From: a virus | Length of the DNA: 64,000 nucleotides | Strand: one strand, 5' to 3' | IMG/VR virus record: IMGVR_UViG_3300004481_000333 | Location: 1 to 64,000 of that record | Part shown: piece by piece, positions 8,151 to 50,395 of the stretch | How positions within the stretch are numbered: position 1 is the stretch's first letter | Layout: every line of letters starts with the position of its first letter | Notes under the pieces: generated by a model | The model's input: only the letters and a program-made list of their open reading frames with translations | What the model was told of the DNA's origin: nothing | Database searches by the model: none | Program-made: the position numbers and the translations under genes

Positions 8151-8636
8151 ATGCCAACCCTAATCAGAACCGTGCAACGTGAGATCATGGTAGCTATGAC
8201 GCCCGAGGAACTTGAGGAACTGGCGTCCAACATCGCCGACAAGTGCGCGCAGGCGGACGAACTCCGCGCTCGCATTGCCGAGCAGTCGGCGCCACTCAAG
8301 CGCGACCTCAAGCTTCTGGAGAAGGAACGCTTTAGCGCCTCCGAGAGCCGGAGGTCTGGCAAGACCAAGCGCCTGGTAGAGTGCGAGGAAATGCTAGTGG
8401 GGGATCGGGTGCAGGTCTTCCGCGCACACGAGCTGGTTGACGACCGACCCGCGACGGATGCGGACCGGCAGCTCGTGCTTGGGGAGCAGCGGCCCGCAGA
8501 AGAGGACCCGGTCTCGGTGGAGGAAAACGACCCAGACCAGAGTTCGACCAGCGGGAAGATGGTCCACATCCCGGCGCGCAAGCCACCCAAGACGGCGGTC
8601 CAGCAGGGGCCGCTCAAGAGAGGACGGAAGTCGTGA
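8151..8636 (+). CDS. hypothetical coiled-coil protein
   Basis: GGAGG SD; 161 aa. Confidence 0.65.
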   Translation: MPTLIRTVQREIMVAMTPEELEELASNIADKCAQADELRARIAEQSAPLKRDLKLLEKERFSASESRRSGKTKRLVECEEMLVGDRVQVFRAHELVDDRPATDADRQLVLGEQRPAEEDPVSVEENDPDQSSTSGKMVHIPARKPPKTAVQQGPLKRGRKS

Positions 8637-14152: not shown

Positions 14153-14718
14153 TTTCTCATTCTGAGCCAGATCGATCACCTGTAAGCGTAGGGATCACGC
14201 GCGACGAGCTGGTCGTCTGTCCGCCGGACCTCCGGCTCACTTCCGGGCAGGTCGTGGCTCTCGAGATTGCGGGGGTGCCAGAATGGGCGGCGGAACTTCT
14301 GCTTCGCGAGTGGGTCGTGATGGCGTGCGCGGAATCCGACCTTCGGCTGCTCACGACGTGGCGCAAGTGGGCCGCGAGGCATGTCTTGCTCACGTGGCGG
14401 GAACCCACCAGGCGGCCTCGGCGCCCTGAGGAGGCTCCGACGCCGGAGGATCGGGCTCGGCGCCGGGCGGAACTGCTGGCTGCGCACAAGCGTGCCGAAG
14501 ATGAATACCTGGCCTACGTGGCGGAGTGCGGCCGCCCAACGGCTGAGCAAGTCAGGTCTCTGGAGCTCGCCGGGGTCCTGATCCCGGGCGGCGCGGCGCG
14601 TGGCGGGGGTCAGGACGCGTCGGGGCCCGGTGGCGGCTACGGTACGACCCCCCCGACTCCGGACGCGCTACAGAGGCAGCTGGCGGCCCTGGCGGCCATC
14701 GACCAAGAGGGCACGTGA
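14149..14718 (+). CDS. hypothetical replication-associated protein
   Basis: ATGA-coupled between initiator and helicase. Confidence 0.55.
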   Translation: MISHSEPDRSPVSVGITRDELVVCPPDLRLTSGQVVALEIAGVPEWAAELLLREWVVMACAESDLRLLTTWRKWAARHVLLTWREPTRRPRRPEEAPTPEDRARRRAELLAAHKRAEDEYLAYVAECGRPTAEQVRSLELAGVLIPGGAARGGGQDASGPGGGYGTTPPTPDALQRQLAALAAIDQEGT

Positions 14719-16202
14719 TGGATACCACGGGCCGGGTACCCCCAAACTCTCTGGACGCCGAGGCCGTGCTGGTCAGCGCGTGTCTGCTGGTGCCGGGCCT
14801 GATCGACGAGGTCCAGGCGTTCTGCTCGCCGGTAGATTGCTACTCTGTGGCGAACCGCCTGATCCTGGAGGCGGCTTGGGATCTGCACTCGAAGAGCCGG
14901 CCAATTGACATGGTGTCTGTCGCGACTCACCTTCGGGACGCGGGTAAGCTCCAGCAGGTCGGAGGGTCGGCGTACCTGGCCCAGGTGGTTGACGCTACGC
15001 CGGCCGTCCACAACGCGGAGGAGCACGCACGGGAGGTCCGGGCCAAGTCCCGGCTGCGGCAGGTCATCCAGGTCTGCCAGCGCTACGCGGCCGAAGGGTA
15101 CGGATGCCCCGGTGACGTGCAGGACTTTATCGACCAAGTCGAGCGGGCCGTGTTCGACATCGCGCAGGCTGAGCAGCAGTCGGATCTGGTGGAGATCCGA
15201 GAGGTCGTGCGTGACTGCTATCGCGTCCTGTCCGAGGCCGCGGAGCGCGGGACCGCCATCACGGGCACGGCCGTTGGCATCACGGAGCTCGACCGCATGA
15301 CGTCGGGGGCGCACCCGGGAGACTTTTGGGTGATCGCTGGTCGACCCGGATCTGGAAAAACTTCTCTGGCCATCACGATGGCGCTCTCGATTGCGGCACC
15401 CCGAGCGTGTGGGTTGGCAAGCGAAGCTGATGCGAATGGGGACGCGACAGCTTACGAACTGGGCGGCGTCGTGCCGTACTTCAGCATGGAGATGCCGCGT
15501 GAGCAGATCGGAAACCGATTGCTGGCCGCAGAAGCGCGAGTTGATCTGTCGAGGATCCGTTCCGGTCACCTACGGCAAGACGACTGGTCGAAGCTGACCT
15601 GCGCCGTGACGCGCCTTGCTCGGATGCCAATCTGGATCGACGACACGCCGGCTCTCACTATGCTTGAGCTGCGGGCGAAGTGCCGGCGCCTGAAGGCGCG
15701 ATGTCAACGCGAAGGCAAGAAGCTTGCCGCCATCATGGTCGACTACCTGCTGCTCATGCAGGGTCTCAGAACGAAAGGGCAGTCGCGTGAGGAGGAGATC
15801 TCGGAACTGTCGCGCGGCATGAAGATCGTGGCAAAAGAACTGGCTGCACCCGTCCTTGCCCTCACGCAGCTCAACCGAGAATGCGAGAAGCGTCCTGACA
15901 AGCGACCGCAGCTGAGCGATATTCGCGAAAGCGGGAGCCTGGAACAGGACGCGGACAATGTCCTTTTCGTCTACCGAGACGAGATGTACCACAAAGAATC
16001 GGTGGACCACGGCTTGGCAGAGTTGATCTTGGCCAAGCAGCGGAACGGCCGAACCGGGATGGTCAAGGTGAAGTGGACCGACTTCTGCAGTCGCTTCGAC
16101 AACCTGCTGTCCACCTATTACGACGACTTCGATGCTGCCTCAACGGGCAGCACCGACGCGGACTACGGACTCGAACAACCGCCCCACTGGGCAGATAGGT
16201 AG
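14715..16202 (+). CDS. dnaB: replicative DNA helicase
   Basis: PPNSLDAE, AGRPGSGKT Walker A, FSMEM, MVDYL, LTQLNR, RPQLSDIRESGSLEQDAD, KQRNG. Confidence 0.97.
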   Translation: MMDTTGRVPPNSLDAEAVLVSACLLVPGLIDEVQAFCSPVDCYSVANRLILEAAWDLHSKSRPIDMVSVATHLRDAGKLQQVGGSAYLAQVVDATPAVHNAEEHAREVRAKSRLRQVIQVCQRYAAEGYGCPGDVQDFIDQVERAVFDIAQAEQQSDLVEIREVVRDCYRVLSEAAERGTAITGTAVGITELDRMTSGAHPGDFWVIAGRPGSGKTSLAITMALSIAAPRACGLASEADANGDATAYELGGVVPYFSMEMPREQIGNRLLAAEARVDLSRIRSGHLRQDDWSKLTCAVTRLARMPIWIDDTPALTMLELRAKCRRLKARCQREGKKLAAIMVDYLLLMQGLRTKGQSREEEISELSRGMKIVAKELAAPVLALTQLNRECEKRPDKRPQLSDIRESGSLEQDADNVLFVYRDEMYHKESVDHGLAELILAKQRNGRTGMVKVKWTDFCSRFDNLLSTYYDDFDAASTGSTDADYGLEQPPHWADR

Positions 16203-16260: not shown

Positions 16261-17211
16261 ATGGCAACAATCGACCAAGTATCAGCGCTGATCTCGGCCC
16301 ACTGCCGCAGGGATGAGGACAGATTTCGGAGCACTGTCCAACAGATTAGGTCCAGCCATGCGTCGCGCAAAGAATGGAGCGCTGCGAGTGCGATCGAGCG
16401 GGCCTATTCGTTTGATACCATGGACACACAGAATCCAGTGTCCGTGCCTCACGAAGTCCGGGGGATGCTGGCCCTTCGGGAACGACGAGTGGTAGCCAGC
16501 GACATGGTGCTGGACAGGGAACTTGAGAACCAGTTCACCCAGATCGTGACGGAGCACAAGGAGAAAGCAAAGCTGCGAGAGCACGACCTGGAACCCATGC
16601 GGAGGGTCCTTATGGCGGGTCCTCCTGGGACTGGCAAGACCATGGCGGCCAGCAGACTTGCTGGCGAGCTCGGACTACCGCTCTATTTCACCAACCTGCA
16701 CAGCATAATCGGAAGTCTGCTAGGAGAGACTGCGGGCAGACTTGGTAAACTGTTCGAGTGGATCCGAACCGCGCAAGCTGTAGTGTTGTTCGATGAGTGT
16801 GACACGCTTGGCAGCAAGAGAGAACCTGGGTCGAGTAACGCACAGGGGGAGATGAACCGCGTCATGGCCAGCCTGTTGACCTTTCTGGAAAGCGATGTTG
16901 GAGACTGCGTGGTACTTTGCGCGACAAACATGCCTGAGGCGCTGGACCCGGCATTCGTGCGGAGGTTCGACGCTTACCTCGAGTTCAGAATGCCGACTTA
17001 CGAACAAGGCTTCCGGCTTATTCACAAAACGTTGGAGAAATTCGATTTCGAGCCCATCACATACGAGCTACCTGAGTTGAGCCACCATGATCTGGTAGAG
17101 GCGGCGCGGTGGGCCGCGAAGAGGGCGTTGTTGGCAGGGATGCCGGTTCTCTCGGACCATCTAAAGGAGGGGTTGATGCGACGCGAGAGACTGGGACGGA
17201 GGGAGCCATGA
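16261..17211 (+). CDS. AAA+ ATPase
   Basis: GPPGTGKT, VVLFDECD, ATN..LDPAFVRRFD. Confidence 0.9.
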   Translation: MATIDQVSALISAHCRRDEDRFRSTVQQIRSSHASRKEWSAASAIERAYSFDTMDTQNPVSVPHEVRGMLALRERRVVASDMVLDRELENQFTQIVTEHKEKAKLREHDLEPMRRVLMAGPPGTGKTMAASRLAGELGLPLYFTNLHSIIGSLLGETAGRLGKLFEWIRTAQAVVLFDECDTLGSKREPGSSNAQGEMNRVMASLLTFLESDVGDCVVLCATNMPEALDPAFVRRFDAYLEFRMPTYEQGFRLIHKTLEKFDFEPITYELPELSHHDLVEAARWAAKRALLAGMPVLSDHLKEGLMRRERLGRREP

Positions 17212-19630: not shown

Positions 19631-19659
19631 TTGACAGCGTCCATCGTATGATGCATGAT
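19631..19659 (+). promoter_or_regulatory. sigma70-type promoter
   Basis: TTGACA-N17-CATGAT preceded by an A-tract (UP-like). Confidence 0.75.
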
Positions 19660-19686
19660 GCACCGTAGTCCAGGAAGGTAACTGCT

Positions 19687-19845
19687 ATGACCGATCAGGA
19701 CGCCAGAAGGCTAGCTGCTGAATCGCGGTGTGATCTTAGGACCGTGCGCTCCATGCTGGTCGACCCGGCAAGCGTGCGTCCGGTCAGCAGGACACGCATC
19801 GAGGAAGCAGCCAAGAGGTTGAAGATCAAACTTCCAAGAGCGTAG
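19687..19845 (+). CDS. small LacI-type HTH regulator (52 aa)
   Basis: MTDQDARRLAAESRCDLRTVRSMLVDPASVRPVSRTRIEEAAKRL resembles the LacI headpiece; AGGAAGG SD; below the ORF-track cutoff. Confidence 0.7.
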   Translation: MTDQDARRLAAESRCDLRTVRSMLVDPASVRPVSRTRIEEAAKRLKIKLPRA

Positions 19846-19848
19846 CAA

Positions 19849-21660
19849 ATGGTCAAAGCAAAAACAGTTCAGCGTTCCGGCCAGGGTCGTCGCAGGAAGG
19901 GCGACCTCCACTCGCCCAAAGGCGAGGCCAAAGTGCACTCAGCCAATACTGAGCTCAAGCGCTCAGTACCTCTGCATCCCGGCGACCTTGGCTCGAGCGC
20001 TGAACCGAAGAGACCGAAGTCTCTCGGCTCAAAAGAGTTGGACGAGGCGCGCGATTGGCTGATCGCGGAGCTCTCTTCCATGGGGGTAGCGAAGCCGGTA
20101 GTGTTCCGAGGCCGGAAGGGACACGGAGTAGAGGTCAAGGACGGACGTCGAAAGTTGGGTGGAATTGACAACGCCGACTTGATTACGCGCAACGTTCATG
20201 CCGTAGAGGACTTGTTTCGGCTGCATGGGTCGGTTACGATAGAAATCGACCCGAAGGCAGCGCACGCGCACAAAGACATCCTGTTCGGAGTGTGTAGAGC
20301 CCTCGTTGCGGGCCAGCGGGCAGTGATGCGGGCTCTGTACCGTGGAGAGCACGACACTCCGGCGGCACGGGACCCCGACTTCGTCGCCTATTGCGCACTA
20401 AGCAAGAACAAGGTCGACCAACTGATCGCCAAAGGTGGTACCCTCCTGTCGAACAGCTACGCCTATCCGATTCTGCGGTACGCAGCATCGCAATGGCTCG
20501 CCAATTCAAAGACAGAAGTAGAGCGCAATCTCAGCGTTGCCAGCAACCAGATAGGGTCCGCGTCGAAGAATGCTGAGCGAAAGTGGCGCGATTGGATGGG
20601 GCACCAGGACGAGCAGTCTCTTCCGAGATTCACCACGCCATCATGCGAGGTCGACGCCGACCAGTACAAGCTAACGATGAAGGGTCGAGAGCTGTCGGTA
20701 GCTCTCAAGATTCAGGGAGCGGACGGCGGAAGAATACCTGTGATCGATCTCGATGCCTACGCTCGCGGTGGATCTGGATGGGCGGACCTGCGGCGCATCC
20801 TCTCGGGGGAATGGGAGCGCCGATCTGCACGGTTGGTGTGGGACGATGCCCGTAGGAGATGGCTCCTGAAAATCTCGGTCATGAAACCCAGACCGGAGTT
20901 GAAGCATGGGGTAGGTGCCATGGTCGTGTGTCCGGGCGTGGACTCACTTGTGCGCGTATGGGGAAGCAACGGATGGCGCGGTCCGGCCGATGACACCGCC
21001 AGCATCATCGCGCGCAAACTCAGGATCGATTCCAGGAAGTCACAACTCGGGCAGCACAAGGATTTCCAGGGTCATGGGGCACGCGGACATGGCCGCGGTA
21101 GGTTCACCAAGCTTCTGCGGAGATTTGGTGATGCGGAAGCGAGATTCGACAAAACGCATATCCAGCAAGGCGCGGCCCGCGTGGTACAACTGGCGCTCGG
21201 ACAACGTCTTGGAAAGAATGGGTGGTCCGAGCGAGAAGGTTCGGTGGGTGAGGTTCTGGTCAACAGTTTTGGATCATTTTGCCCGACGCATCCGGACCGT
21301 CGCATCGAGCGAGTGCTCCGACGATTCCCCATCTGTGCCCAACGGGACGCGATTTGCTGGGCTCTACGCAAGGCTGGAATCCCTCATCGGGTTGTCAAGA
21401 GCGCGAATCTTTGCCCCGCGTGCGGAGAGGCTAAGGTTGTCCACTACAGCGGCATGGATTGGTGCTGCCCCAAGTGCCACCTGCGCGCGCCCCGAGACCT
21501 ATGGACCGCATGGCAGACGTTCATTGCCGGAGGTGATAGCCAACACTACGACCTTTCCGAAGTCGGAAAGGAGTTCCGAGAAGCGGCAGAATATGCGGAA
21601 TCGATCCGCAGGAAGGCAGAACAGAATGGATCCGAAGAAACTGAAGAAGCTGCTCAATGA
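19849..21660 (+). CDS. TnpB/Cas12f-like RNA-guided protein, predicted RuvC-inactive
   Basis: WLLKIS..KP then RuvC-I AMVVCPG (Asp->Cys); GHGARGHGRGR Cas12f-like segment; RuvC-II VLVNSFG (Glu->Asn); KAGIP.RVV; CPAC/CPKC Zn ribbon; RuvC-III RDL; adjacent mini-array. True start may lie downstream of 19849. Confidence 0.8.
   Translation: MVKAKTVQRSGQGRRRKGDLHSPKGEAKVHSANTELKRSVPLHPGDLGSSAEPKRPKSLGSKELDEARDWLIAELSSMGVAKPVVFRGRKGHGVEVKDGRRKLGGIDNADLITRNVHAVEDLFRLHGSVTIEIDPKAAHAHKDILFGVCRALVAGQRAVMRALYRGEHDTPAARDPDFVAYCALSKNKVDQLIAKGGTLLSNSYAYPILRYAASQWLANSKTEVERNLSVASNQIGSASKNAERKWRDWMGHQDEQSLPRFTTPSCEVDADQYKLTMKGRELSVALKIQGADGGRIPVIDLDAYARGGSGWADLRRILSGEWERRSARLVWDDARRRWLLKISVMKPRPELKHGVGAMVVCPGVDSLVRVWGSNGWRGPADDTASIIARKLRIDSRKSQLGQHKDFQGHGARGHGRGRFTKLLRRFGDAEARFDKTHIQQGAARVVQLALGQRLGKNGWSEREGSVGEVLVNSFGSFCPTHPDRRIERVLRRFPICAQRDAICWALRKAGIPHRVVKSANLCPACGEAKVVHYSGMDWCCPKCHLRAPRDLWTAWQTFIAGGDSQHYDLSEVGKEFREAAEYAESIRRKAEQNGSEETEEAAQ
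19867..20027 (+). ncRNA. putative tracrRNA-like scaffold overlapping the 5' end of the Cas12f-like ORF
   Basis: CTCCACT (19906-19912) and CCTCTGCATCC (19969-19979) are complementary to two parts of the array repeat; long stem 19867-19892/19980-20005 and terminal hairpin 20005-20027. Confidence 0.65.
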
Positions 21661-22363
21661 GGCTGGAATCTGCTTCACCCAGTGGAACGACTGGGAACTA
21701 GTACAGCGCGAACTCTCGAAGCTCAGGGTTGCGCGCGACAAGGCTGAAGCACACTACTGCCTGTTTCTGTGTGGCGTCGAGGCCTGCTCGGCGGAGTGGC
21801 GTAGCGGGCTCGATTCGAAGGAACCGCAGACATTCGACCATTGGCTGCGCAAGCAGTCTCTGCATGATGACCCGGCGCGCTACCGGGCTATGCTGATCGC
21901 TCTCGAAACCAAGGGGCTTGAGTGGGTGCAACGAGTCGGACCGATTGCGATCGCGACGGTCGTAAAGAATCTTCCATCAGAACTTCGGGACGAAGGATTC
22001 AGGCGTCTTGCGGACAAGAGAGCTGACGTCGGGCAACCGGTATCGTCTAAGATCGGTCCGGCGGTTGTGGCGGCCGTCAAAGCGGCGCACCAGGACATCT
22101 GCCCTCCCATGCCGAGACATCCGAAGCTCGTGAAGTTGGGTGCCAAGCTGCAGACGTCGAGGGGTCAAGTGAAGTCGCTGGAGGATGAGCTCAAGGAAGC
22201 TAGGTCTACCATTGCGGAGCGAGACCGGACGATCGAACGGCTCATGGCTGAGAATTCCGAGCTTCGCGAGCGGCTCGGTGCTGCGCAAACCGCGCTAGGC
22301 GCTCGCACGCAGAAACCTCGAAAAACAGTGGGGACGCAGCAACCGGCGATGCCGGCCGAGTAG
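21626..22363 (+). CDS. coiled-coil accessory protein coupled to the Cas12f-like gene
   Basis: 245 aa from ATG 21626, overlaps the upstream stop; C-terminal heptads VKSLEDELKEARSTIAERDRTIERLMAENSELRERL. Confidence 0.7.
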   Translation: MDPKKLKKLLNEAGICFTQWNDWELVQRELSKLRVARDKAEAHYCLFLCGVEACSAEWRSGLDSKEPQTFDHWLRKQSLHDDPARYRAMLIALETKGLEWVQRVGPIAIATVVKNLPSELRDEGFRRLADKRADVGQPVSSKIGPAVVAAVKAAHQDICPPMPRHPKLVKLGAKLQTSRGQVKSLEDELKEARSTIAERDRTIERLMAENSELRERLGAAQTALGARTQKPRKTVGTQQPAMPAE

Positions 22364-22439
22364 AAGCAATGGAGATGGCGAAGACCCGCTCGCAAAGTAC
22401 AGCGCAAGGTAGCAGGATCGTGGAGGTCCTAGCTGGCGG

Positions 22440-22646
22440 GTCAGGACAGCTGAAAGGATGCGGAGGAAGTGGAGCATGACCATCACGCACGCACGGGCCC
22501 GGGACATTCTGGTCGCTGTGGGCAACAGGATGCAGAGGAAGTGGAGCCGATCGAGCGCGGTCCTGCGGGTCACTTCACCTCGGCGTCGCTGTGGGCAACA
22601 GGATGCAGAGGAAGTGGAGCTAAGGCCTGGCAGGCAACCAAAGAAC
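22440..22646 (+). CRISPR. mini CRISPR array: 3 repeat units, 36-bp repeat
   Basis: GTCGCTGTGGGCAACAGGATGCAGAGGAAGTGGAGC identical at 22512-22547 and 22585-22620; 5'-degenerate copy at 22440-22475; unique spacers of 36 and 37 bp plus a third segment after repeat 3. Confidence 0.85.
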
Positions 22647-22675
22647 GGCCCCCATGGAACAACGCCACGGGGGCC
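22647..22675 (+). terminator. hairpin closing the array
   Basis: GGCCCCCATGG...CCACGGGGGCC stem; no U-tract. Confidence 0.45.
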
Positions 22676-22904
22676 AGGCATCATTACCTCGATCTGAGGC
22701 TCCCTTCGGCTCTCGCCGACGTGCTTGGGATTAGGTAGGAGAAGACTAGCACGCCAGCGAGGTCGTTGACCAGCCGGCGCATTCGTGCCAGAACGAATAA
22801 GCCCCGCCGACCGAGAATCGACGGGGCTCTGGAAGGATCGAGACCTGCTACATCAGGAGTAGCAGGATGGCAGTCTTCGGTCAACCAGGTCCACTGGGGG
22901 CAGC

Positions 22905-24125
22905 GTGAGTCGGTGGTGCAGAGCCGAAAAGGCCGAGCGTTCCCGGGTGAGGGAGCGGGGTCCACGGCAGCCTGAACATCCACCAGACTTCCCCGAAACC
23001 GAGCGTTTCGCTCTCGAGCGGGTCTTCAGCTGGCTTTGCTGGGTCTCGTCGTCGCCTGCGGGATCGATGCTGGGTCGTCAAGAGCTTTTCGGGCTGCCGA
23101 TCCGAGAATGCCAGCGGTGTAGGGGCACGGGGCTGGTTCAGCGCCAGCCACGCCGGGAGCCCCGGTTCGCGGAGTTCGCGATCCTACTGGGCTGCTTGGA
23201 GGAGGAGGCGAGGCAGCGGTGGGAGGCGCTTCAGGCCCAGATCGAGCCAGAACTGGGGGACAAGCAATGCCCGAGATGTCGAGGAAGCGGAAGGACGCAG
23301 GCCAGGATCGGGGCGAAGCCCATCGGTACCTGGTATCAATCTCCGTCGATTGAGTGCCCCGCAGGCGTCCGGAACTGCTCGGGTCAGGCCCCATGGTCAG
23401 AAGAGGTCGTGTGCGCATCGGGGCATCCAGACGCTCGCGACTGGTATGAGCCCAACCCTGAGAGCTATGCCTACATTGGGGCACAACTGTCCAGGTTGCT
23501 GCTGGTAGAGCGCCGGCACGGAGCTAGGTCCGTGAGTGTGCTGCAGATCTGGTACGGCCCGGACGCGCGACGGTATGACCCCGAGGAGGTCCCGATCCCG
23601 ACCGACGATGCTTTGCGCGTGCTTGAGCTTGCGCATCAAGAGGGCGCGTTGGTGCTGGACGTCGAGACCGAAGAGGACGTTCCGGCTGAGATCGCGAAGC
23701 GACTCAAGTCCTACAACGAGGAGTGGCGGGACCGGCACGAGGCGGAACGTAATGGTAGCGCGATTGCGCCGTACTCCATGGGCGCGTTTGAGATCTCGGC
23801 TCTGCTGCGTCCCAAGCGGATCCAGCGATCCGAAGAGCTGGGGCGTCAGGCACAGCTGGTCCAGATCTGGCCCGCGACCGCGACGGGGCGCAAGGCGCTT
23901 CGTGGCATGTCGGACATCGAGAATTTGCGTTCCACCATTGAGACCAAGCGGGGTGGACACCGAAAGGTCGCTCAGCTGGACCGGGAGGCGGAGAAGCTGT
24001 TGAGTCGAGCGCAGCGGTATTGGTGCGCGACCAAGCGGGTATCACCGACTCTCATCGTCGTGGCGGACTGGAGGGCAACCGCCGAGGTTCTGGTGAAGGA
24101 AATCCTTGCCCGGAGGGCGGCGTGA
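22905..24125 (+). CDS. Zn-finger protein, possible antiterminator/late regulator
   Basis: two DnaJ/Q-type motifs, CQRCRGTG and CPRCRGSG; position near the end of the early/middle operon. Confidence 0.55.
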   Translation: MSRWCRAEKAERSRVRERGPRQPEHPPDFPETERFALERVFSWLCWVSSSPAGSMLGRQELFGLPIRECQRCRGTGLVQRQPRREPRFAEFAILLGCLEEEARQRWEALQAQIEPELGDKQCPRCRGSGRTQARIGAKPIGTWYQSPSIECPAGVRNCSGQAPWSEEVVCASGHPDARDWYEPNPESYAYIGAQLSRLLLVERRHGARSVSVLQIWYGPDARRYDPEEVPIPTDDALRVLELAHQEGALVLDVETEEDVPAEIAKRLKSYNEEWRDRHEAERNGSAIAPYSMGAFEISALLRPKRIQRSEELGRQAQLVQIWPATATGRKALRGMSDIENLRSTIETKRGGHRKVAQLDREAEKLLSRAQRYWCATKRVSPTLIVVADWRATAEVLVKEILARRAA

Positions 24126-36165: not shown

Positions 36166-37506
36166 ATGTTCCTGCGCTCTGCAGACGACAACGCACACGA
36201 ACGCGTGCGCGACATACTGCTCAAGACATATGACCGAGAACTGCCACAGGAAGCCGCAGCTCTGGAGGCTTGGTCCAGCACGTTTCACCGATATCAGCTC
36301 CGGTGGCTCTTTGAGCCCGCTCGGTATGCCATCTTCAACAAGTGCCGACAAATCGGTGGTACCTACACGATTGCGGCCTGGACGCTACTGCGCGCTGCCT
36401 ATTTCGCACAACCGAACTATATTGTATCGAAGGGCGAGGACGAAGGCCTGATCGCGCTAGAATATGCGCGAAAGCACGCGGAAGTTCTGGGCGTACTGGG
36501 GTCCAGATTGGTCCAAGTCACGCGAGCGCGAGCCACATCCTTGGAGTTTGCCAGCGGAGGCATGATTGATGTTCGACCCTCGACATCCGGTGCTCGCGGA
36601 TATCACGGGAACGTAGTCCTGGATGAGTTTGCGTACCATCAGCACCCAGATCTGGTGTGGGAATCAGCAGCGGGAGCGACATTCCACGGCTACGACCTGA
36701 GAATGCTAAGCACCCCAAACGGGATAGGAAATCAGTTCCACGGCTTCTGGAAAGATAAGAAGAAGTCGCGGGACTGGGCAGGACATTCTGTCACGGTTTG
36801 GGATGCGCAGCGCGACGGAATGCAGGTAGATCTTGACCACTGTCGGAAGATGGCGCGCGGTGACAAGCGCCTATTCGGGCAGATGTTCGAGTGCAAGTTC
36901 CTGGACGCTGACGACCAGTACTTGCCGACCGACCTCCTGCAGGACGCCCAGCAGGACATGATCTGGACGAGCAATGGCGCGACCTATGCCGGGCTCGACA
37001 TCGGATCCACTGTGGATCGGACAGAGCTTGTGGTTGTGCGTGTCACGCCGGACGGAACCCGCAACGTCATCGCGACACAAACGTGCAAACGTACAGAATA
37101 TGGCGACTTGGTTCGACTCGTCGAGACAGCGCTACATCAACATCGATGCGTTCGTATTTGCATCGACGCGACCGGAATCGGCATTTTCCCAGCGCAGCAG
37201 CTCCAGGCCCACTTCGGTCGCACGAAGGTGGAACCAGTCATGTTCACAGCGTCGGTCAAGGAAGAGCTGGCGGGCGTGCTGTTCCAGGTGCTGCAAGATC
37301 GAAAACTGAAGCTACCGCCGGACGACGAGCAGATGTTCGACGACCTCTGCTCCTTGCGTCGCATCGTGACGACCGCGGGTAACATCCGGTACGACGCGCC
37401 ACACACGGATGAGGGTCACGCTGATAAAGCGTGGGCCCTGGCTCTGGCCCTCCACGCTTGCGCAAAACCCATCAGCTACCGCCACGAGAGCGAAACCAGC
37501 AGATAG
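36166..37506 (+). CDS. terL: terminase large subunit
   Basis: NKCRQIGGT Walker A, VVLDEFA Walker B, STPNG, AGLDIG, DATGIG, GHADKAWA. Confidence 0.93.
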   Translation: MFLRSADDNAHERVRDILLKTYDRELPQEAAALEAWSSTFHRYQLRWLFEPARYAIFNKCRQIGGTYTIAAWTLLRAAYFAQPNYIVSKGEDEGLIALEYARKHAEVLGVLGSRLVQVTRARATSLEFASGGMIDVRPSTSGARGYHGNVVLDEFAYHQHPDLVWESAAGATFHGYDLRMLSTPNGIGNQFHGFWKDKKKSRDWAGHSVTVWDAQRDGMQVDLDHCRKMARGDKRLFGQMFECKFLDADDQYLPTDLLQDAQQDMIWTSNGATYAGLDIGSTVDRTELVVVRVTPDGTRNVIATQTCKRTEYGDLVRLVETALHQHRCVRICIDATGIGIFPAQQLQAHFGRTKVEPVMFTASVKEELAGVLFQVLQDRKLKLPPDDEQMFDDLCSLRRIVTTAGNIRYDAPHTDEGHADKAWALALALHACAKPISYRHESETSR

Positions 37507-37512
37507 AGCCCA

Positions 37513-39312
37513 ATGGCAGACGACGCAGGACTGGATCGAGCGCATCATACCGCTCAAAAGTACCTGACGCCACGCTATCGGCATCTCGACAAGCTGAAGC
37601 GCTACGTCAAGGGTACGCAGTACAGCCACCTGAAGGACTGGTGGGATGATTGCCCCCTGTGGGAAAAGGCCCCGTGTCTCGTCTACCCTGTTGCCGATCT
37701 CGCAATCGGGTCGAACAAGGAACTGCTGCTTGGGGATGAGCGGTTTCCCACGATCACAAGCCGACCCGAGCAGGACGAGAAGGACGAGGGGCTAGACGAG
37801 CAGTCGAGCGCGGAATTGGACAAGCTGATCAAGAAGATTGAGAAGCAAGTCCGGTTCAAAGCCAGATGCCGACAAGCGTTCGAATCTGCTCAGGGGACGT
37901 GTGACGCCATCGCGATCCTGGGCGCACGTCGCGGAAAACTGTTCATCGAAATCCAATCCCCGAAGCGCTGCACGCCCACGTTTGACGCCAACGGAGATGT
38001 CGCTCGTCTAGAAATACGATACCCGTTCTTGCGCAAGGACAGCCAGAACCAGTGGCAGTGCTACTTGTACAGAAGGGTCATCAATGATCAGCTGGATATC
38101 CTGTACCAAGAGGCGATTGGGAACCCCGATGGGACTGAACCTGGGTGGACGGTAAAGCAGAAAGTGCCCCATGGCTTCGGCTTTTGCCCCGTAATCTGGC
38201 ACAAGAACTCGGAGTCCGAGGACGACGATGTCACTCAGTTCGATGGCCATGCGATTCATGAAAACGTGCTGGGTGAGATTGATGGACTGAACTACACGAT
38301 CTCGCAACGACACCGCGCCGTCCTGTACTGCGGAGACCCGCAGGTTGTGGAAATCGGGGTGGAGCCTGGCTATAGCCCGACCGAAGTCGCGACCCAGAAC
38401 ATGGTTGAGGCCACACTCGATGGAGGACTGGCGACGGGACCTGATGGCGGCAACCCGCAGATTGGATCCTACGGACCGAAGTGCCGACGCAGCAAACTCG
38501 CTGGAGGGCGCAAGAAGGGCCCCGGGTACCCGTGGCAATACGCTGACCCAAACGTCAAGGTGTTCTACCTGACCCTACCCCCTGAAGCCCTGAAGGCCGT
38601 TTTCGACCACTGTGAGGACCTGTACAGCAAGCTTTGCGACTCCATGGCGGTCGTGATCCCGGGGCCTCAGATGGGGAAGCTCCTGCAGGTAATCACGGGC
38701 AAGGGCATCGAGGCCCTGAGGGCCAAGCAGCTGGATCGGTGCGACGGATACCGCGACGACTTCGGTGACGGCTTCATCCTGCGCGCGATCGACATGCTGC
38801 TAAGGATCGCTTACCAGTTGGGTAGTCAGAGCCCGAATACTTTGCCTGGACTCGTGGGCCTCGATTCAGCGCTGCAAATACTGCAGAAGTCCGCCATCGG
38901 TGGCGATGGAATCTGGATGGGACCGCGCCTGACGCTCAAGTGGGGCAACTACTTCCGTCCCGACGCGGAAGACGAGCAAAAGACGGTTGCGACTGCGAAC
39001 GATTCGAGGTCTCTCACGACGCTGCGCAGCAAGGTGCAGAAGATCGCGCCCACGTTCGGCATCGAAGACCCCGATGCTTACCTGAAAGACCTGGAGAAGG
39101 AAAATGCGGACCGCGAGGCCAAGGAGGCCCTGCGGATGCATGAACTCCAGAAGACGCTAGTCCCAAAGGAAAAGCCTGGTGAAGGAAGATCAAGAAACCC
39201 AGCAGTTCCTGAGGGAGGAGGCGAAAACGAATCGTCGCCGTCAGGCCCTGGTGGCGGCGGTCCTGCTGCTGCTAAAGCGTCGGGGAAGAAAGCTCGCGAA
39301 GCAGCAGATTGA
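37513..39312 (+). CDS. portal protein
   Basis: 599 aa directly after TerL; PHGFGFCPVIW SPP1-like motif; TGKGIE. Confidence 0.8.
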   Translation: MADDAGLDRAHHTAQKYLTPRYRHLDKLKRYVKGTQYSHLKDWWDDCPLWEKAPCLVYPVADLAIGSNKELLLGDERFPTITSRPEQDEKDEGLDEQSSAELDKLIKKIEKQVRFKARCRQAFESAQGTCDAIAILGARRGKLFIEIQSPKRCTPTFDANGDVARLEIRYPFLRKDSQNQWQCYLYRRVINDQLDILYQEAIGNPDGTEPGWTVKQKVPHGFGFCPVIWHKNSESEDDDVTQFDGHAIHENVLGEIDGLNYTISQRHRAVLYCGDPQVVEIGVEPGYSPTEVATQNMVEATLDGGLATGPDGGNPQIGSYGPKCRRSKLAGGRKKGPGYPWQYADPNVKVFYLTLPPEALKAVFDHCEDLYSKLCDSMAVVIPGPQMGKLLQVITGKGIEALRAKQLDRCDGYRDDFGDGFILRAIDMLLRIAYQLGSQSPNTLPGLVGLDSALQILQKSAIGGDGIWMGPRLTLKWGNYFRPDAEDEQKTVATANDSRSLTTLRSKVQKIAPTFGIEDPDAYLKDLEKENADREAKEALRMHELQKTLVPKEKPGEGRSRNPAVPEGGGENESSPSGPGGGGPAAAKASGKKAREAAD

Positions 39313-48859: not shown

Positions 48860-50395
48860 ATGGCTCTATTCGTGACCTCGACTTCTAGCATCTCGATGCA
48901 TGGCGCCTACGCCATCGAGCGAGAACCACCGGCACTCATCCGCGGTGCCGGGACCGCGGTGGCTTGCATTGTAGGGCAGTTCCCATGGGGACCAAGCTAT
49001 CGAGACACGACCCCTACCCGGGCCCCCTACATCTCGACCGACATCAACGACTTGGTCTTGACGTTTGCGCCGCCCGGTATGGACCGCACGGGGTCGGGGT
49101 ACTTGGCGTTCATTCGCAAGTACTGGCCGGATCTGCGACCCATCCGGGTTGTGGGCACGACCGCCGCCGCCGCATCAGCCAACCTGGTAGATGGCGCAAC
49201 AACCATCTGTGTCGCGACGCTGAAGTACTGTGGAACCGCTGGCAACTCCGTCACGTTTGACGTCACGGACGCGAGTGATGGAGACGCAACCCACTTCAAC
49301 CTCGTAGTTACAATCACAGGCGCTAGCGGCACCTATACCGAGACGGTACACAACATCAACGCTTCGGGAGGGACGTTCGTTTCCCCGACTGAACTCACGA
49401 CGTGTCGTCTTCTGGGCACCATCACGCGATCCAACACGGGTCGCCCGGACAACATCACAGGAAGCGCGTTCTCGGGTGGTGTGACAGGCACAATCAACTC
49501 CACGCAGTACATCGGTACTGCTGGAAGTGGTGACTTCGGCATCGCTGGCGCCGAAAACGACGATTCCGTGTCCGTCATCTTCGCCGATGACCCTGGCGAC
49601 ACGGACCGCGCGGCCGTCATGGCCGGGATCGTGGCACACGCGACCCTCATGGGAGACCGACGCGCTATCATCCACGTGGACTCCGGAATCACGGTCATCG
49701 CGACTCTGCGGGCGGACGCCATCCTGACGGGAAACCGAAACTGGCAGACAGCTTTGGTTGACCCGTGGGTGACGATCAAAGACGACATCGACAGCACGGC
49801 CCGCACGGTTCCGGGTGACTCGTTCTTGGCCAGCGTGTTGTGCCAACTGCCTCCGTCCACATCGGCAGCGTTCAAGAACTCGATGGTGCGCGACATGCTG
49901 CGCCACATCGTGAGCCTAGAGACACCGCGTGGTCTCGCAGCCGGAACAAACGCTGACTATGGCATCACAACCATCCGGCCCCACAAGAAAGGTGGTTGGT
50001 GCTTCGAGGCGTGCGTCACCACGCTGGCTCCATCCAATCCTGCGAAGCGGCTCTTCACTCGGACTGGCATGGGGATCTACATCGCCAAGTCGTGGTCCGA
50101 CAGCGTGCAAGAGTGGGTCGACGCCCCGAACGTGCAGGCTATCCAGGACGAGCTGATCCTGAGCCTCGATGCCTTCATGCAGACGCTGAAAAAGAACGCG
50201 ACGACGGACCCCATCCATCTGCCGCACGTCATCGACTACGGCATTCTGGACCCACAGGGGTTCAATGACTCACAGTCAATAGCGAACGGGTTCTACTACA
50301 TCCCGCTGGATGTCCAGACGTCGTCCGGCATGGAGAAACTGATTCTGACGTTGCGCTTCGGCGAGAACGTCACGATCGATGCCGCCAACCGCTAA
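48860..50395 (+). CDS. contractile tail sheath protein
   Basis: GAY.IE, IVGQFPWGP, GTAGNSV, FSGG.TG, VDPWV; 511 aa. Confidence 0.85.
   Translation: MALFVTSTSSISMHGAYAIEREPPALIRGAGTAVACIVGQFPWGPSYRDTTPTRAPYISTDINDLVLTFAPPGMDRTGSGYLAFIRKYWPDLRPIRVVGTTAAAASANLVDGATTICVATLKYCGTAGNSVTFDVTDASDGDATHFNLVVTITGASGTYTETVHNINASGGTFVSPTELTTCRLLGTITRSNTGRPDNITGSAFSGGVTGTINSTQYIGTAGSGDFGIAGAENDDSVSVIFADDPGDTDRAAVMAGIVAHATLMGDRRAIIHVDSGITVIATLRADAILTGNRNWQTALVDPWVTIKDDIDSTARTVPGDSFLASVLCQLPPSTSAAFKNSMVRDMLRHIVSLETPRGLAAGTNADYGITTIRPHKKGGWCFEACVTTLAPSNPAKRLFTRTGMGIYIAKSWSDSVQEWVDAPNVQAIQDELILSLDAFMQTLKKNATTDPIHLPHVIDYGILDPQGFNDSQSIANGFYYIPLDVQTSSGMEKLILTLRFGENVTIDAANR

Follow-up and report, generated by a model that had tools for sequence, protein, structure and literature searches.

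The window analyzed here comprises positions 1 to 64,000 of the IMG/VR virus record IMGVR_UViG_3300004481_000333, which is 85,413 bp long, linear, and estimated to be 78% complete, so that the window represents its first 64 kb. On the plus strand, the window contains a compact cassette in which the gene of a 603-amino-acid (aa) effector with a Cas12f fold is followed by an overlapping gene of a 245-aa partner, a leader, and a small CRISPR array. The original prediction, which was made from the letters of the DNA, had described a phage-encoded, nuclease-dead Cas12f-like module running from a promoter through a helix-turn-helix (HTH) gene to the array, with a tracr-like RNA and a coiled-coil partner. 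The cassette is composed of the following features.

19849..21660, plus strand: 603-aa effector with a Cas12f fold (by AlphaFold2, Foldseek, and the family profile) and the RuvC triad C361/N472/D550
19897..19926, plus strand: peptide KGDLHSPKGE (residues 17-26), a candidate docking motif in a region predicted to be disordered
20929..20931, plus strand: Cys361, in place of the catalytic Asp of RuvC-I
21262..21264, plus strand: Asn472, in place of the catalytic Glu of RuvC-II
21412..21477, plus strand: CxxC...CxxC zinc ribbon (TNB domain), kept, with C522, C525, C540, and C543
21496..21498, plus strand: Asp550, the RuvC-III Asp, kept and invariant in 5/5 sequences
21626..22363, plus strand: 245-aa partner, all-helical with a coiled coil, with its start codon 35 nt inside the effector gene and GGAAGG upstream
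22364..22439, plus strand: leader with a conserved element of about 60 nt, CCGCTCGCAA...GCGGG
22440..22620, plus strand: CRISPR array of three 36-nt repeats with spacers of 36 and 37 nt
22440-22475, plus strand: repeat 1, degenerate in its 5' half
22476-22511, plus strand: spacer 1
22512-22547, plus strand: repeat 2
22548-22584, plus strand: spacer 2
22585-22620, plus strand: repeat 3
22621..22676, plus strand: sequence downstream of repeat 3, from which an additional guide could arise, with a G+C-rich hairpin at 22646-22676 as its end

Three relatives of the cassette serve for comparison. G002 is an IMG/VR phage of 106,685 bp and 100% completeness, whose cassette genes lie in locus L002; the two contig ends are covered by L002 (end) and L010 (start). 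G003 is a phage of 105,770 bp and 99% completeness (locus L003). L006 is a 4,466-bp contig of an Armatimonadetes metagenome-assembled genome.

Single-sequence searches with the 603-aa protein gave weak matches, namely AsCas12f with an E value of 2.8e-5 and the Cas12f and Cas12u3 families of PADLOC with E values of about 1e-6. The Pfam TNB domain PF07282 was matched at E 0.0024, which is short of the family cutoff, and NCBIfam guided_TnpB at 23.6 bits with a cutoff of 100. An exhaustive HMMER search gave homologues in 172 representative clusters at E ≤ 1e-3, 95 at 1e-10, and 16 at 1e-30. A family profile was made from 28 of these homologues, and the same alignment was fed to AlphaFold2. The profile matches Cas12f sequences at E values from 7e-35 to 3e-18, including OsCas12f (7e-35) and AsCas12f (5e-34). 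Its match to the sigma-associated dCas12f (PDB 9n9c; E 6.7e-4) is weak next to the 1e-34 for active Cas12f. Membership in Cas12m, a candidate raised by the HDD and HEK triads, was rejected on sequence, as UnCas12m4a matches the profile at E 3.5e-8 and in the zinc-ribbon region only (profile positions 379-517).

The AlphaFold2 model of the effector has a predicted local distance difference test (pLDDT) score of 84.7 and a predicted template modeling (pTM) score of 0.72; residues 1-51 have pLDDT scores below 50 and are predicted to be disordered. Its best match in a Foldseek search of the PDB is AsCas12f (8j12_A; E 8.9e-20, template modeling (TM) score by target 0.60). The first 13 rows are all Cas12f chains with E values from 8.9e-20 to 1.9e-12, further matches are dCas12f (3.2e-12) and TnpB, and Cas12m2 is matched at E 3.7e-11 with a TM score of 0.32. 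By both fold and sequence, the 603-aa protein is a Cas12f-fold protein akin to type V-F, as the original prediction had supposed when it called for structure prediction and Foldseek. Features of the effector that go beyond the Cas12f layout are an additional N-terminal region, which contains a conserved peptide, and a C-terminal helix. Within the peptide KGDLHSPKGE, residues G18, H21, S22, P23, K24, G25, and E26 are invariant in 5/5 sequences. Related motifs are present in many closer homologues, and in distant ones they are among the best-kept parts of the protein. Conserved yet located in predicted disorder, the peptide shows the pattern expected of a docking motif.

We then inspected the RuvC active site. 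All of the motifs reported earlier were recovered, namely MVVCPGV (C361), VLVNSFG (N472), APRDLW (D550), the zinc ribbon CxxC...CxxC, and QGHGARGHGRGR, and the zinc-ribbon cysteines C522/C525/C540/C543 and the GHG segment are invariant in 28/28 aligned sequences. HMMER aligns 'mvvcpgv' of the effector with 'mgidlgv' of AsCas12f, which places C361 on the RuvC-I Asp. The family member P0042 aligns end to end with AsCas12f, which fixes the columns of the RuvC-II Glu ('iliedy' with 'iqmedl') and the RuvC-III Asp; in the family alignment, N472 occupies the former column and D550 the latter. Two of the three RuvC catalytic residues are lost, as had been claimed, and the window effector has the triad C361/N472/D550 in place of the intact Asp-Glu-Asp triad of type V-F. 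The close homologues have related triads, which are C-S-D in P0002 and C-A-D in both P0003 and the L002 protein. In nucleases of the RuvC/RNase H fold, two-metal catalysis is expected to be lost when two of the three metal-binding carboxylates are gone. Because C361 and N472 replace Asp and Glu, the window effector is expected to bind double-stranded DNA (dsDNA) without cutting it. From these residues, its cleavage activity is expected to be abolished, and its mode of action would be RNA-guided binding without cleavage.

The replacement at RuvC-I extends far beyond the window. In a census of the triads of 133 family representatives of at least 400 aa, Asp-Glu-Asp occurs in P0155 only, and P0153 (1,094 aa) is probably misaligned. 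The RuvC-I Asp is thus missing from 132/133. In the other 131, RuvC-I is occupied by His, Arg, Asn, Lys, or a hydrophobic residue, and the triads seen most often are HED (55) and RED (20). In a FastTree tree rooted on P0155, which is a quick tree without a clade test, the window protein groups with proteins whose RuvC-I residue is Cys, Val, Leu, Ile, or Met and most of which have lost the Glu too. This subclade is nested in an Arg-Glu-Asp clade with the conserved N-terminal peptide, itself beside His-Glu-Asp clades. The window protein thus belongs to a larger branch of Cas12f, comprising about 170 representative clusters with the RuvC-I Asp replaced, for whose genomic contexts no account was found in the literature searched.

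The model of the partner (pLDDT 83.3) is composed of an all-helical domain (residues 3-154) and one long helix (residues 166-228) forming a coiled coil. Its homologues are few, with four found by single sequence and eight by profile. Two of them lie on contigs of 62,528 and 2,636 bp, sizes equal to those of contigs with effector homologues, and the 106,685-bp contig of L002 carries both the effector and the partner genes. Beyond coiled-coil noise, the partner matches no family in Pfam, PHROGs, NCBIfam, or PADLOC. Foldseek gave no PDB match for its fold, and VIA-align matched the long helix only, with a Z score of about 7. For the N-terminal domain, PF11300 (DUF3102) was not matched in Pfam at E values up to 10, and two weak leads concur on this family: Atlas feature scores of 0.92-0.94 and the top row of the BFVD Foldseek search, a DUF3102 phage protein at E 0.073. 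DUF3102 is an uncharacterised family of phages and plasmids. The same domain is also weakly similar to HTH-type models (DnaA C-terminal domain; TM score 0.37). No nuclease-like motif or fold was found in the partner by family scans, Foldseek, or PADLOC. The protein matches no sigma-factor or Tn7 family and is conserved across related loci, so the earlier view that it is neither of the two stands.

The array begins 76 nt downstream of the partner gene, an adjacent array being a feature of type V-F. Three 36-bp repeat units separated by spacers of 36-37 bp had been predicted, and they are found at 22440, 22512, and 22585. Repeats 2 and 3 are identical, and repeat 1 is 69% identical to them, with the differences located in its 5' half. 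The 3' half of the repeat, GGATGCRGAGGMAGTGGAGC, is common to the window and L002/L003, and L006 has GGTGCGAAGGAAGTGGAAG. This conserved half fits a type V CRISPR RNA (crRNA), in which the repeat-derived handle would lie 5' of the spacer. Self-folding of the repeat is not above background (z-scores 0.24, 0.15, and -1.07). Just upstream of repeat 1, the leader element of about 60 nt is conserved in the window, L002, and L006. Its predicted structure is a long stem, enclosing hairpins, that reaches directly up to repeat 1; of its 20 pairs, 4 have compensatory changes, as judged from three sequences only.

The separate tracr-like RNA of the original prediction was not located. A duplex scan of both strands of three loci found no anti-repeat of a trans-activating CRISPR RNA (tracrRNA) above background that was syntenic across these loci, and an Rfam scan for a tracr-like RNA gave no relevant match. 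An 11-nt repeat complement, CCTCTGCATCC, at about 19970 in the effector coding sequence was rejected, since it is present in L002 but not in L006 and its score is within background. Downstream of the array, G+C-rich hairpins at 22646-22676 and 22799-22829 are terminator-like on the minus strand, where they have T-rich tails, and no T-run follows them on the plus strand. No convincing minus-strand gene ends at these hairpins. They are not conserved in G002, where an open reading frame directly follows the truncated last repeat.

The cassette of effector, overlapping partner, leader, and array of 36-nt repeats recurs in G002, G003, and L006. The same gene neighborhood, which the original prediction had proposed to look for in other phages, is therefore present in two phages of about 106 kb. 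G002 and G003 each encode a 575-aa effector (55% identity to that of the window) and an overlapping 243-aa partner, followed by the array. L006 encodes a 530-aa effector homologue of the Arg-Glu-Asp type (34% identity) and an overlapping 198-aa partner homologue, with three 36-nt repeats. The window and L006 partners match each other at E 5e-7 by BLASTP and with a probability of 98.1% (E 6.5e-14) by hhalign. By tblastx, the window and L002 are homologous only within about 19800-22620 and the flanking genes are unrelated, which means that the cassette is shared between different phage backgrounds. The repeats of the window are more than chance, because L002/L003 and L006 likewise carry, behind the homologous gene pair, related repeats of 36 nt in which the 3' half is conserved.

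A gene of another kind accompanies the cassette in L006. The gene of a 655-aa helicase of the DinG/XPD family (L006:98-2065) overlaps the start of the dCas12f-like gene by 23 nt, the protein matching Pfam Helicase_C_2 at E 1.6e-42 and the PADLOC family 'typeIV_DinG, CAS-IV-A associated' at E 1.6e-115. A second DinG-like open reading frame, of 908 aa and 37-38% identical, lies elsewhere in the L006 genome. No DinG homologue of the L006 helicase was found in the three phage records (the window's whole 85-kb record, G002, and G003).

The arrays of the two larger phages are longer than that of the window. Read around the contig ends, the G002 array comprises 22 spacers, which are 34-39 nt long and include one duplicate, and it ends in a truncated repeat. 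Because the contig is broken inside the array, the 'direct terminal repeat' that marks the G002 record as complete is an array repeat plus spacer. The G003 array has about 21 spacers, one of them duplicated. Upstream of the array, G002 and G003 are identical at 8,528/8,528 positions, and G003 has one additional spacer directly at the leader. The two phages have 16 distal spacers in common, and a third contig, L015, has the same distal array end. The leader-proximal difference suggests a recent acquisition. Polarity at the leader end is what spacer acquisition at a leader produces, and the arrays are accordingly read as live. The window and G002 have no spacer in common.

Scans with the repeat core found no carriers other than these phages, aside from single chance-like matches. 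These include one exact copy of the 22-nt repeat core in each of the unrelated metagenome contigs L019 and L020. Separately, a single-copy stretch of about 33 nt in an Armatimonadota genome (G130; L033:1504-1535) is 94% identical to the G002 repeat (E 2.2e-5 for that genome) and has no repeats around it. These matches may be due to chance in G+C-rich DNA. Searches of IMG/VR with P0010, P0042, and a profile of the L006-type partner found no further loci, and an effector search of the Armatimonadota sample gave, with the exception of G001, weak TnpB-like C-terminal matches only.

Cas1, Cas2, Cas4, and Y1 TnpA were found in 0/3 phage records, with controls as expected; two of the three records (G002 and G003) are at least 99% complete. 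The absence of these genes, previously noted for the window, thus holds for the whole 85-kb record. A Sigma70_r2 or sigma-70-family protein was likewise found in 0/3 records, so an rpoE partner of the dCas12f-sigmaE type is not present there. Scans of the neighboring genes gave no transposition family, and no genome-wide search for TnsB or TniQ was made.

We then searched for spacer targets. The spacers of the window, G002, and G003 gave only chance-level matches of at most 17 nt to the 85-kb genome and the fetched loci (local blastn-short). The G002 array compared by BLAST with the whole records G002, G003, and G000 gave nothing outside the array better than E 0.011. Among GenBank phages and plasmids there was either no match or a match at E 0.4 only. 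Exact scans of IMG/VR returned zero matches for 28 nt of window spacer 2 and only its own array for 26 nt of the newest G003 spacer; these scans cover 2 of about 25 spacers and miss mismatched protospacers. No spacer-length match was found for the G002 array in 301 Armatimonadota genomes or for the L006 array in its own genome.

We consider it probable, with moderate confidence, that the cassette is a type V system derived from Cas12f and equipped with an accessory subunit, which exerts binding-only interference on external DNA in the manner of CRISPR interference (CRISPRi). The effector, which keeps the Cas12f fold, the zinc ribbon, and the architecture for guide and target binding, would bind crRNA-specified dsDNA without cutting it. 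Effector and partner would be co-translated, and the partner may act as an accessory subunit, an adaptor that dimerises and either stabilises the complex on its target or brings in a further factor. The guides would come from the downstream array, with the 3' half of the repeat as the handle and the spacer on its 3' side. New spacers would probably be installed by the Cas1-Cas2 of the host, as the three phage records encode none. The targets would lie outside the phage genome, most likely on competing mobile elements, and would be silenced or blocked by binding. Counted in favor of this proposal are the Cas12f kinship and altered triad of the effector, the conservation of the cassette, the behavior of the arrays, the absence of adaptation genes, and the lack of spacer matches in their own genomes.

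Binding-only interference has precedents among type V effectors. Cas12m2, an effector with a non-canonical RuvC site (HDD triad), is established to interfere in this way (PMC10442227). The 2025 classification lists types V-C and V-M as binding-only and includes V-C, V-M, V-O, V-P, and Cas12b3 among the inactivated forms (PMC12669027).

Several observations weigh against the proposal. Apart from the weak DUF3102 leads, neither a family nor a fold could be recognised for the partner, and no tracrRNA was found. With two spacers and a degenerate first repeat, the window array is minimal, so the window copy of the cassette may show lower activity than the related ones. The single-spacer difference between the two assemblies could be a loss and not a gain. 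No protospacer was found in any search, so neither a target class nor a protospacer adjacent motif can be assigned. Finally, the effector still has Asp550 and the zinc ribbon, and in other branches of TnpB an altered RuvC site can leave the protein with some activity (PMC10691335).

A further reading is offered tentatively, as possible yet doubtful. The cassette would represent an undescribed type V subtype, an adaptive 'CRISPRi weapon' carried by phages, in which the dead Cas12f provides only the RNA-guided address. The partner would be the arm that acts on the target, to which it would bring host machinery, for instance a helicase of the DinG type, RNA polymerase, or the replisome. Such a system would be a class 2 counterpart of type IV-A, and L006, with its DinG gene, would be its ancestral or complete form.

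We regard it as unlikely that the cassette instead encodes a transcription factor of the TldR or dCas12f-sigmaE kind, dedicated to the RNA-guided control of host or phage genes. In that case the few guides would direct activation or repression at particular host loci, with the partner as regulatory module. The pairing of a dead effector with a non-Cas partner does parallel those two systems (PMC13472631), the array of the window is tiny with its 2 spacers, and the N-terminal domain of the partner is weakly HTH-like (DnaA C-terminal, TM 0.37). However, the relatives carry 20 or more diverse spacers that turn over, as opposed to the fixed guides of TldR and dCas12f-sigmaE. Moreover, the absence of any spacer common to the window and G002, of self-targets in the phage genomes, and of spacer-length matches in the 301 Armatimonadota genomes or the L006 host genome argues against this reading.

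Retention of target destruction, either through a rearranged active site or through a nuclease or helicase recruited in trans by the partner, is distinctly unlikely. Two of the three metal-binding residues are now Cys and Asn, the second being Ser or Ala in close relatives; the partner is all-helical, without a nuclease family or fold; and the three phage records have no DinG homologue. These points stand against the retained Asp550 and zinc ribbon, the activity that some TnpB branches may keep with altered RuvC sites, and the L006 gene of the DinG family (PADLOC typeIV_DinG) that overlaps the effector start codon.

It is very unlikely that the window copy is a decaying or inert remnant of the cassette. 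It has three repeats only, the first being 69% identical to the others, and its record is 78% complete and without adaptation genes. Nevertheless, both reading frames are intact, the zinc ribbon, the GHG segment, and the N-terminal motif are kept, and the gene overlap and the leader are conserved. Least probable of all is a counter-defence decoy, in which the dead Cas12f would inhibit host CRISPR immunity by soaking up host Cas12f guides or competing for targets: the Cas12f lineage of the effector and the proposal, noted in the 2025 classification, of a phage-encoded, partly inactivated Cas9 variant as an anti-CRISPR (PMC12669027) are outweighed by the variable arrays and dedicated partner of the cassette itself and by the finding of no host Cas12f system with matching repeats in the repeat-core scans.

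Comparison with known systems shows where the cassette departs from them. Its closest relatives by sequence and fold are the type V-F proteins AsCas12f, OsCas12f, and Un1Cas12f, with which it shares the WED/REC/RuvC/zinc-ribbon layout, the GHG(R) segment, the compact size, and an array of repeats of about 36 nt. Unlike them, the window effector has Cys at RuvC-I, Asn at RuvC-II, the extra N-terminal region, and the C-terminal helix, and the cassette is phage-borne, with an obligate-looking partner gene, no cas1/2/4, and no tracrRNA found. With dCas12f-sigmaE, the effector has in common that a nuclease-dead Cas12f derivative is paired with a non-Cas protein, with presumed RNA-guided DNA binding. 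dCas12f-sigmaE is described as having a C-terminal truncation that removes part of the RuvC site, single chimeric guide RNAs, and no array (PMC13472631). In contrast, the window effector keeps the RuvC-III/zinc-ribbon region, no rpoE is present, and multi-spacer arrays in phages are found here instead of single chimeric guides in Bacteroidota chromosomes.

By analogy, the expected crRNA-guided tight binding, which would silence targets left uncut by a degenerate RuvC site, is similar to that of Cas12m (V-M) and Cas12c (V-C) (PMC10442227, PMC12669027). However, the window effector lies outside the Cas12m clade by sequence, and Cas12m acts alone without a partner gene. Compact effectors with arrays in phages lacking adaptation genes are also known from Cas12j/CasPhi, Cas12l/CasLambda, and Cas12r of the Thermus Lalka phages. 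None of these has the coiled-coil partner, and Cas12j and Cas12l are characterised as genome editors. According to the Cas12r report, the arrays of those systems are presumed to be directed against competing mobile elements and to depend on the host for adaptation; the report describes Cas12r as an active nuclease whose interference is abolished by D238A, with 29-bp repeats and a spacer-first crRNA (10.64898/2026.04.20.719267). Identity with the Cas12r system was rejected on account of its active RuvC, 29-bp repeats, and different crRNA layout.

TldR proteins are likewise nuclease-dead members of the TnpB/Cas12 lineage, some of them phage-encoded, that act by binding. They differ in having one omega-RNA-like guide beside flagellin or ABC-transporter genes and no CRISPR array, and the window effector is nearer to Cas12f than to TnpB (guided_TnpB 23.6 bits, cutoff 100). 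The TldR arrangement of a single guide with a fixed adjacent host target is not seen here, as an array is present and no self or host target was found in the phages' own genomes, the 301 Armatimonadota genomes, or the L006 genome.

Nuclease-dead Cas12 relatives, phage-encoded CRISPR systems, and binding-only interference are all known already. Apparently new is the combination of a dead effector of the Cas12f lineage with a live, turning-over array, phage carriage, and strict pairing with a conserved accessory protein. Full-text literature searches, in which subscription papers and preprint supplements were thinly covered, found no description of a dead Cas12f-lineage effector with this partner; within that literature, the suggestion that the combination may be undescribed holds. 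If confirmed, the cassette would be a type V variant with an accessory subunit, and more accessory proteins of class 2 probably await discovery according to the 2025 classification (PMC12669027). It would also show how phages use non-destructive RNA-guided targeting against rivals or hosts. As a tool, it would provide a small DNA binder that can be programmed, is dead by nature, and comes with its own module for recruitment.

The remaining features are located upstream of the effector gene and in the surrounding phage genome.

19631..19659, plus strand: sigma-70-like promoter match TTGACA-N17-CATGAT with 10/12 matches, a possible operon promoter in the window phage
19687..19845, plus strand: 52-aa open reading frame with its stop 3 nt ahead of the effector start codon and an unproven HTH-like reading
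14715-16202: DnaB-like helicase (PHROG E 1.6e-99)
36166-37506: large terminase (PHROG E 1.2e-39)
37513-39312: portal (PHROG E 5.3e-5)
48860-50395: tail sheath (PHROG E 8.7e-20)

The coordinates first given for the 52-aa (19687-19845), 603-aa (19849-21660), and 245-aa (21626-22363) reading frames were confirmed. The promoter-like site is present at 19631-19659 as reported, but one site was observed with 0.8 expected in shuffles, so that the match alone is not above chance. In tblastx, the stretch shared with L002 does not begin until near 19800, about 50 nt ahead of the effector start codon, which leaves the promoter-like site and most of the 52-aa frame outside the shared part. L002 and L006 have no counterpart of this frame. 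Its reading as a LacI-type HTH protein relied on non-significant similarity (CytR DNA-binding domain, E 0.36; no match to the LacI Pfam family) and is not upheld. Hence, of the unit drawn from the promoter through the HTH gene to the array, the reading frames and repeats stand, and the promoter-like site and most of the 52-aa frame do not belong to what is shared with L002.

The PHROG matches to helicase, terminase, portal, and tail sheath identify the window phage as a tailed type and bear out the phage setting claimed for the 603-aa gene. A tRNA gene scan of the window phage found none. No RNA run was listed as containing its sequence, and the one DNA run listed contained a fraction of 0.07 of the sampled words. 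Adjoining the DnaB-like helicase is a 316-aa AAA-type ATPase (16261-17211), which matches phrog_3757 at E 4e-63 and clamp-loader families more weakly; it is part of the replication module upstream of the cassette. Downstream of the array, a 406-aa open reading frame (22905-24125) without a counterpart in L002/L010 contains repeated zinc-finger motifs of the CxxCxGxG type, and is weakly matched by the DnaJ central domain (E 4e-4) and the PHROG 'anti-termination protein Q-like' (E 1e-4).

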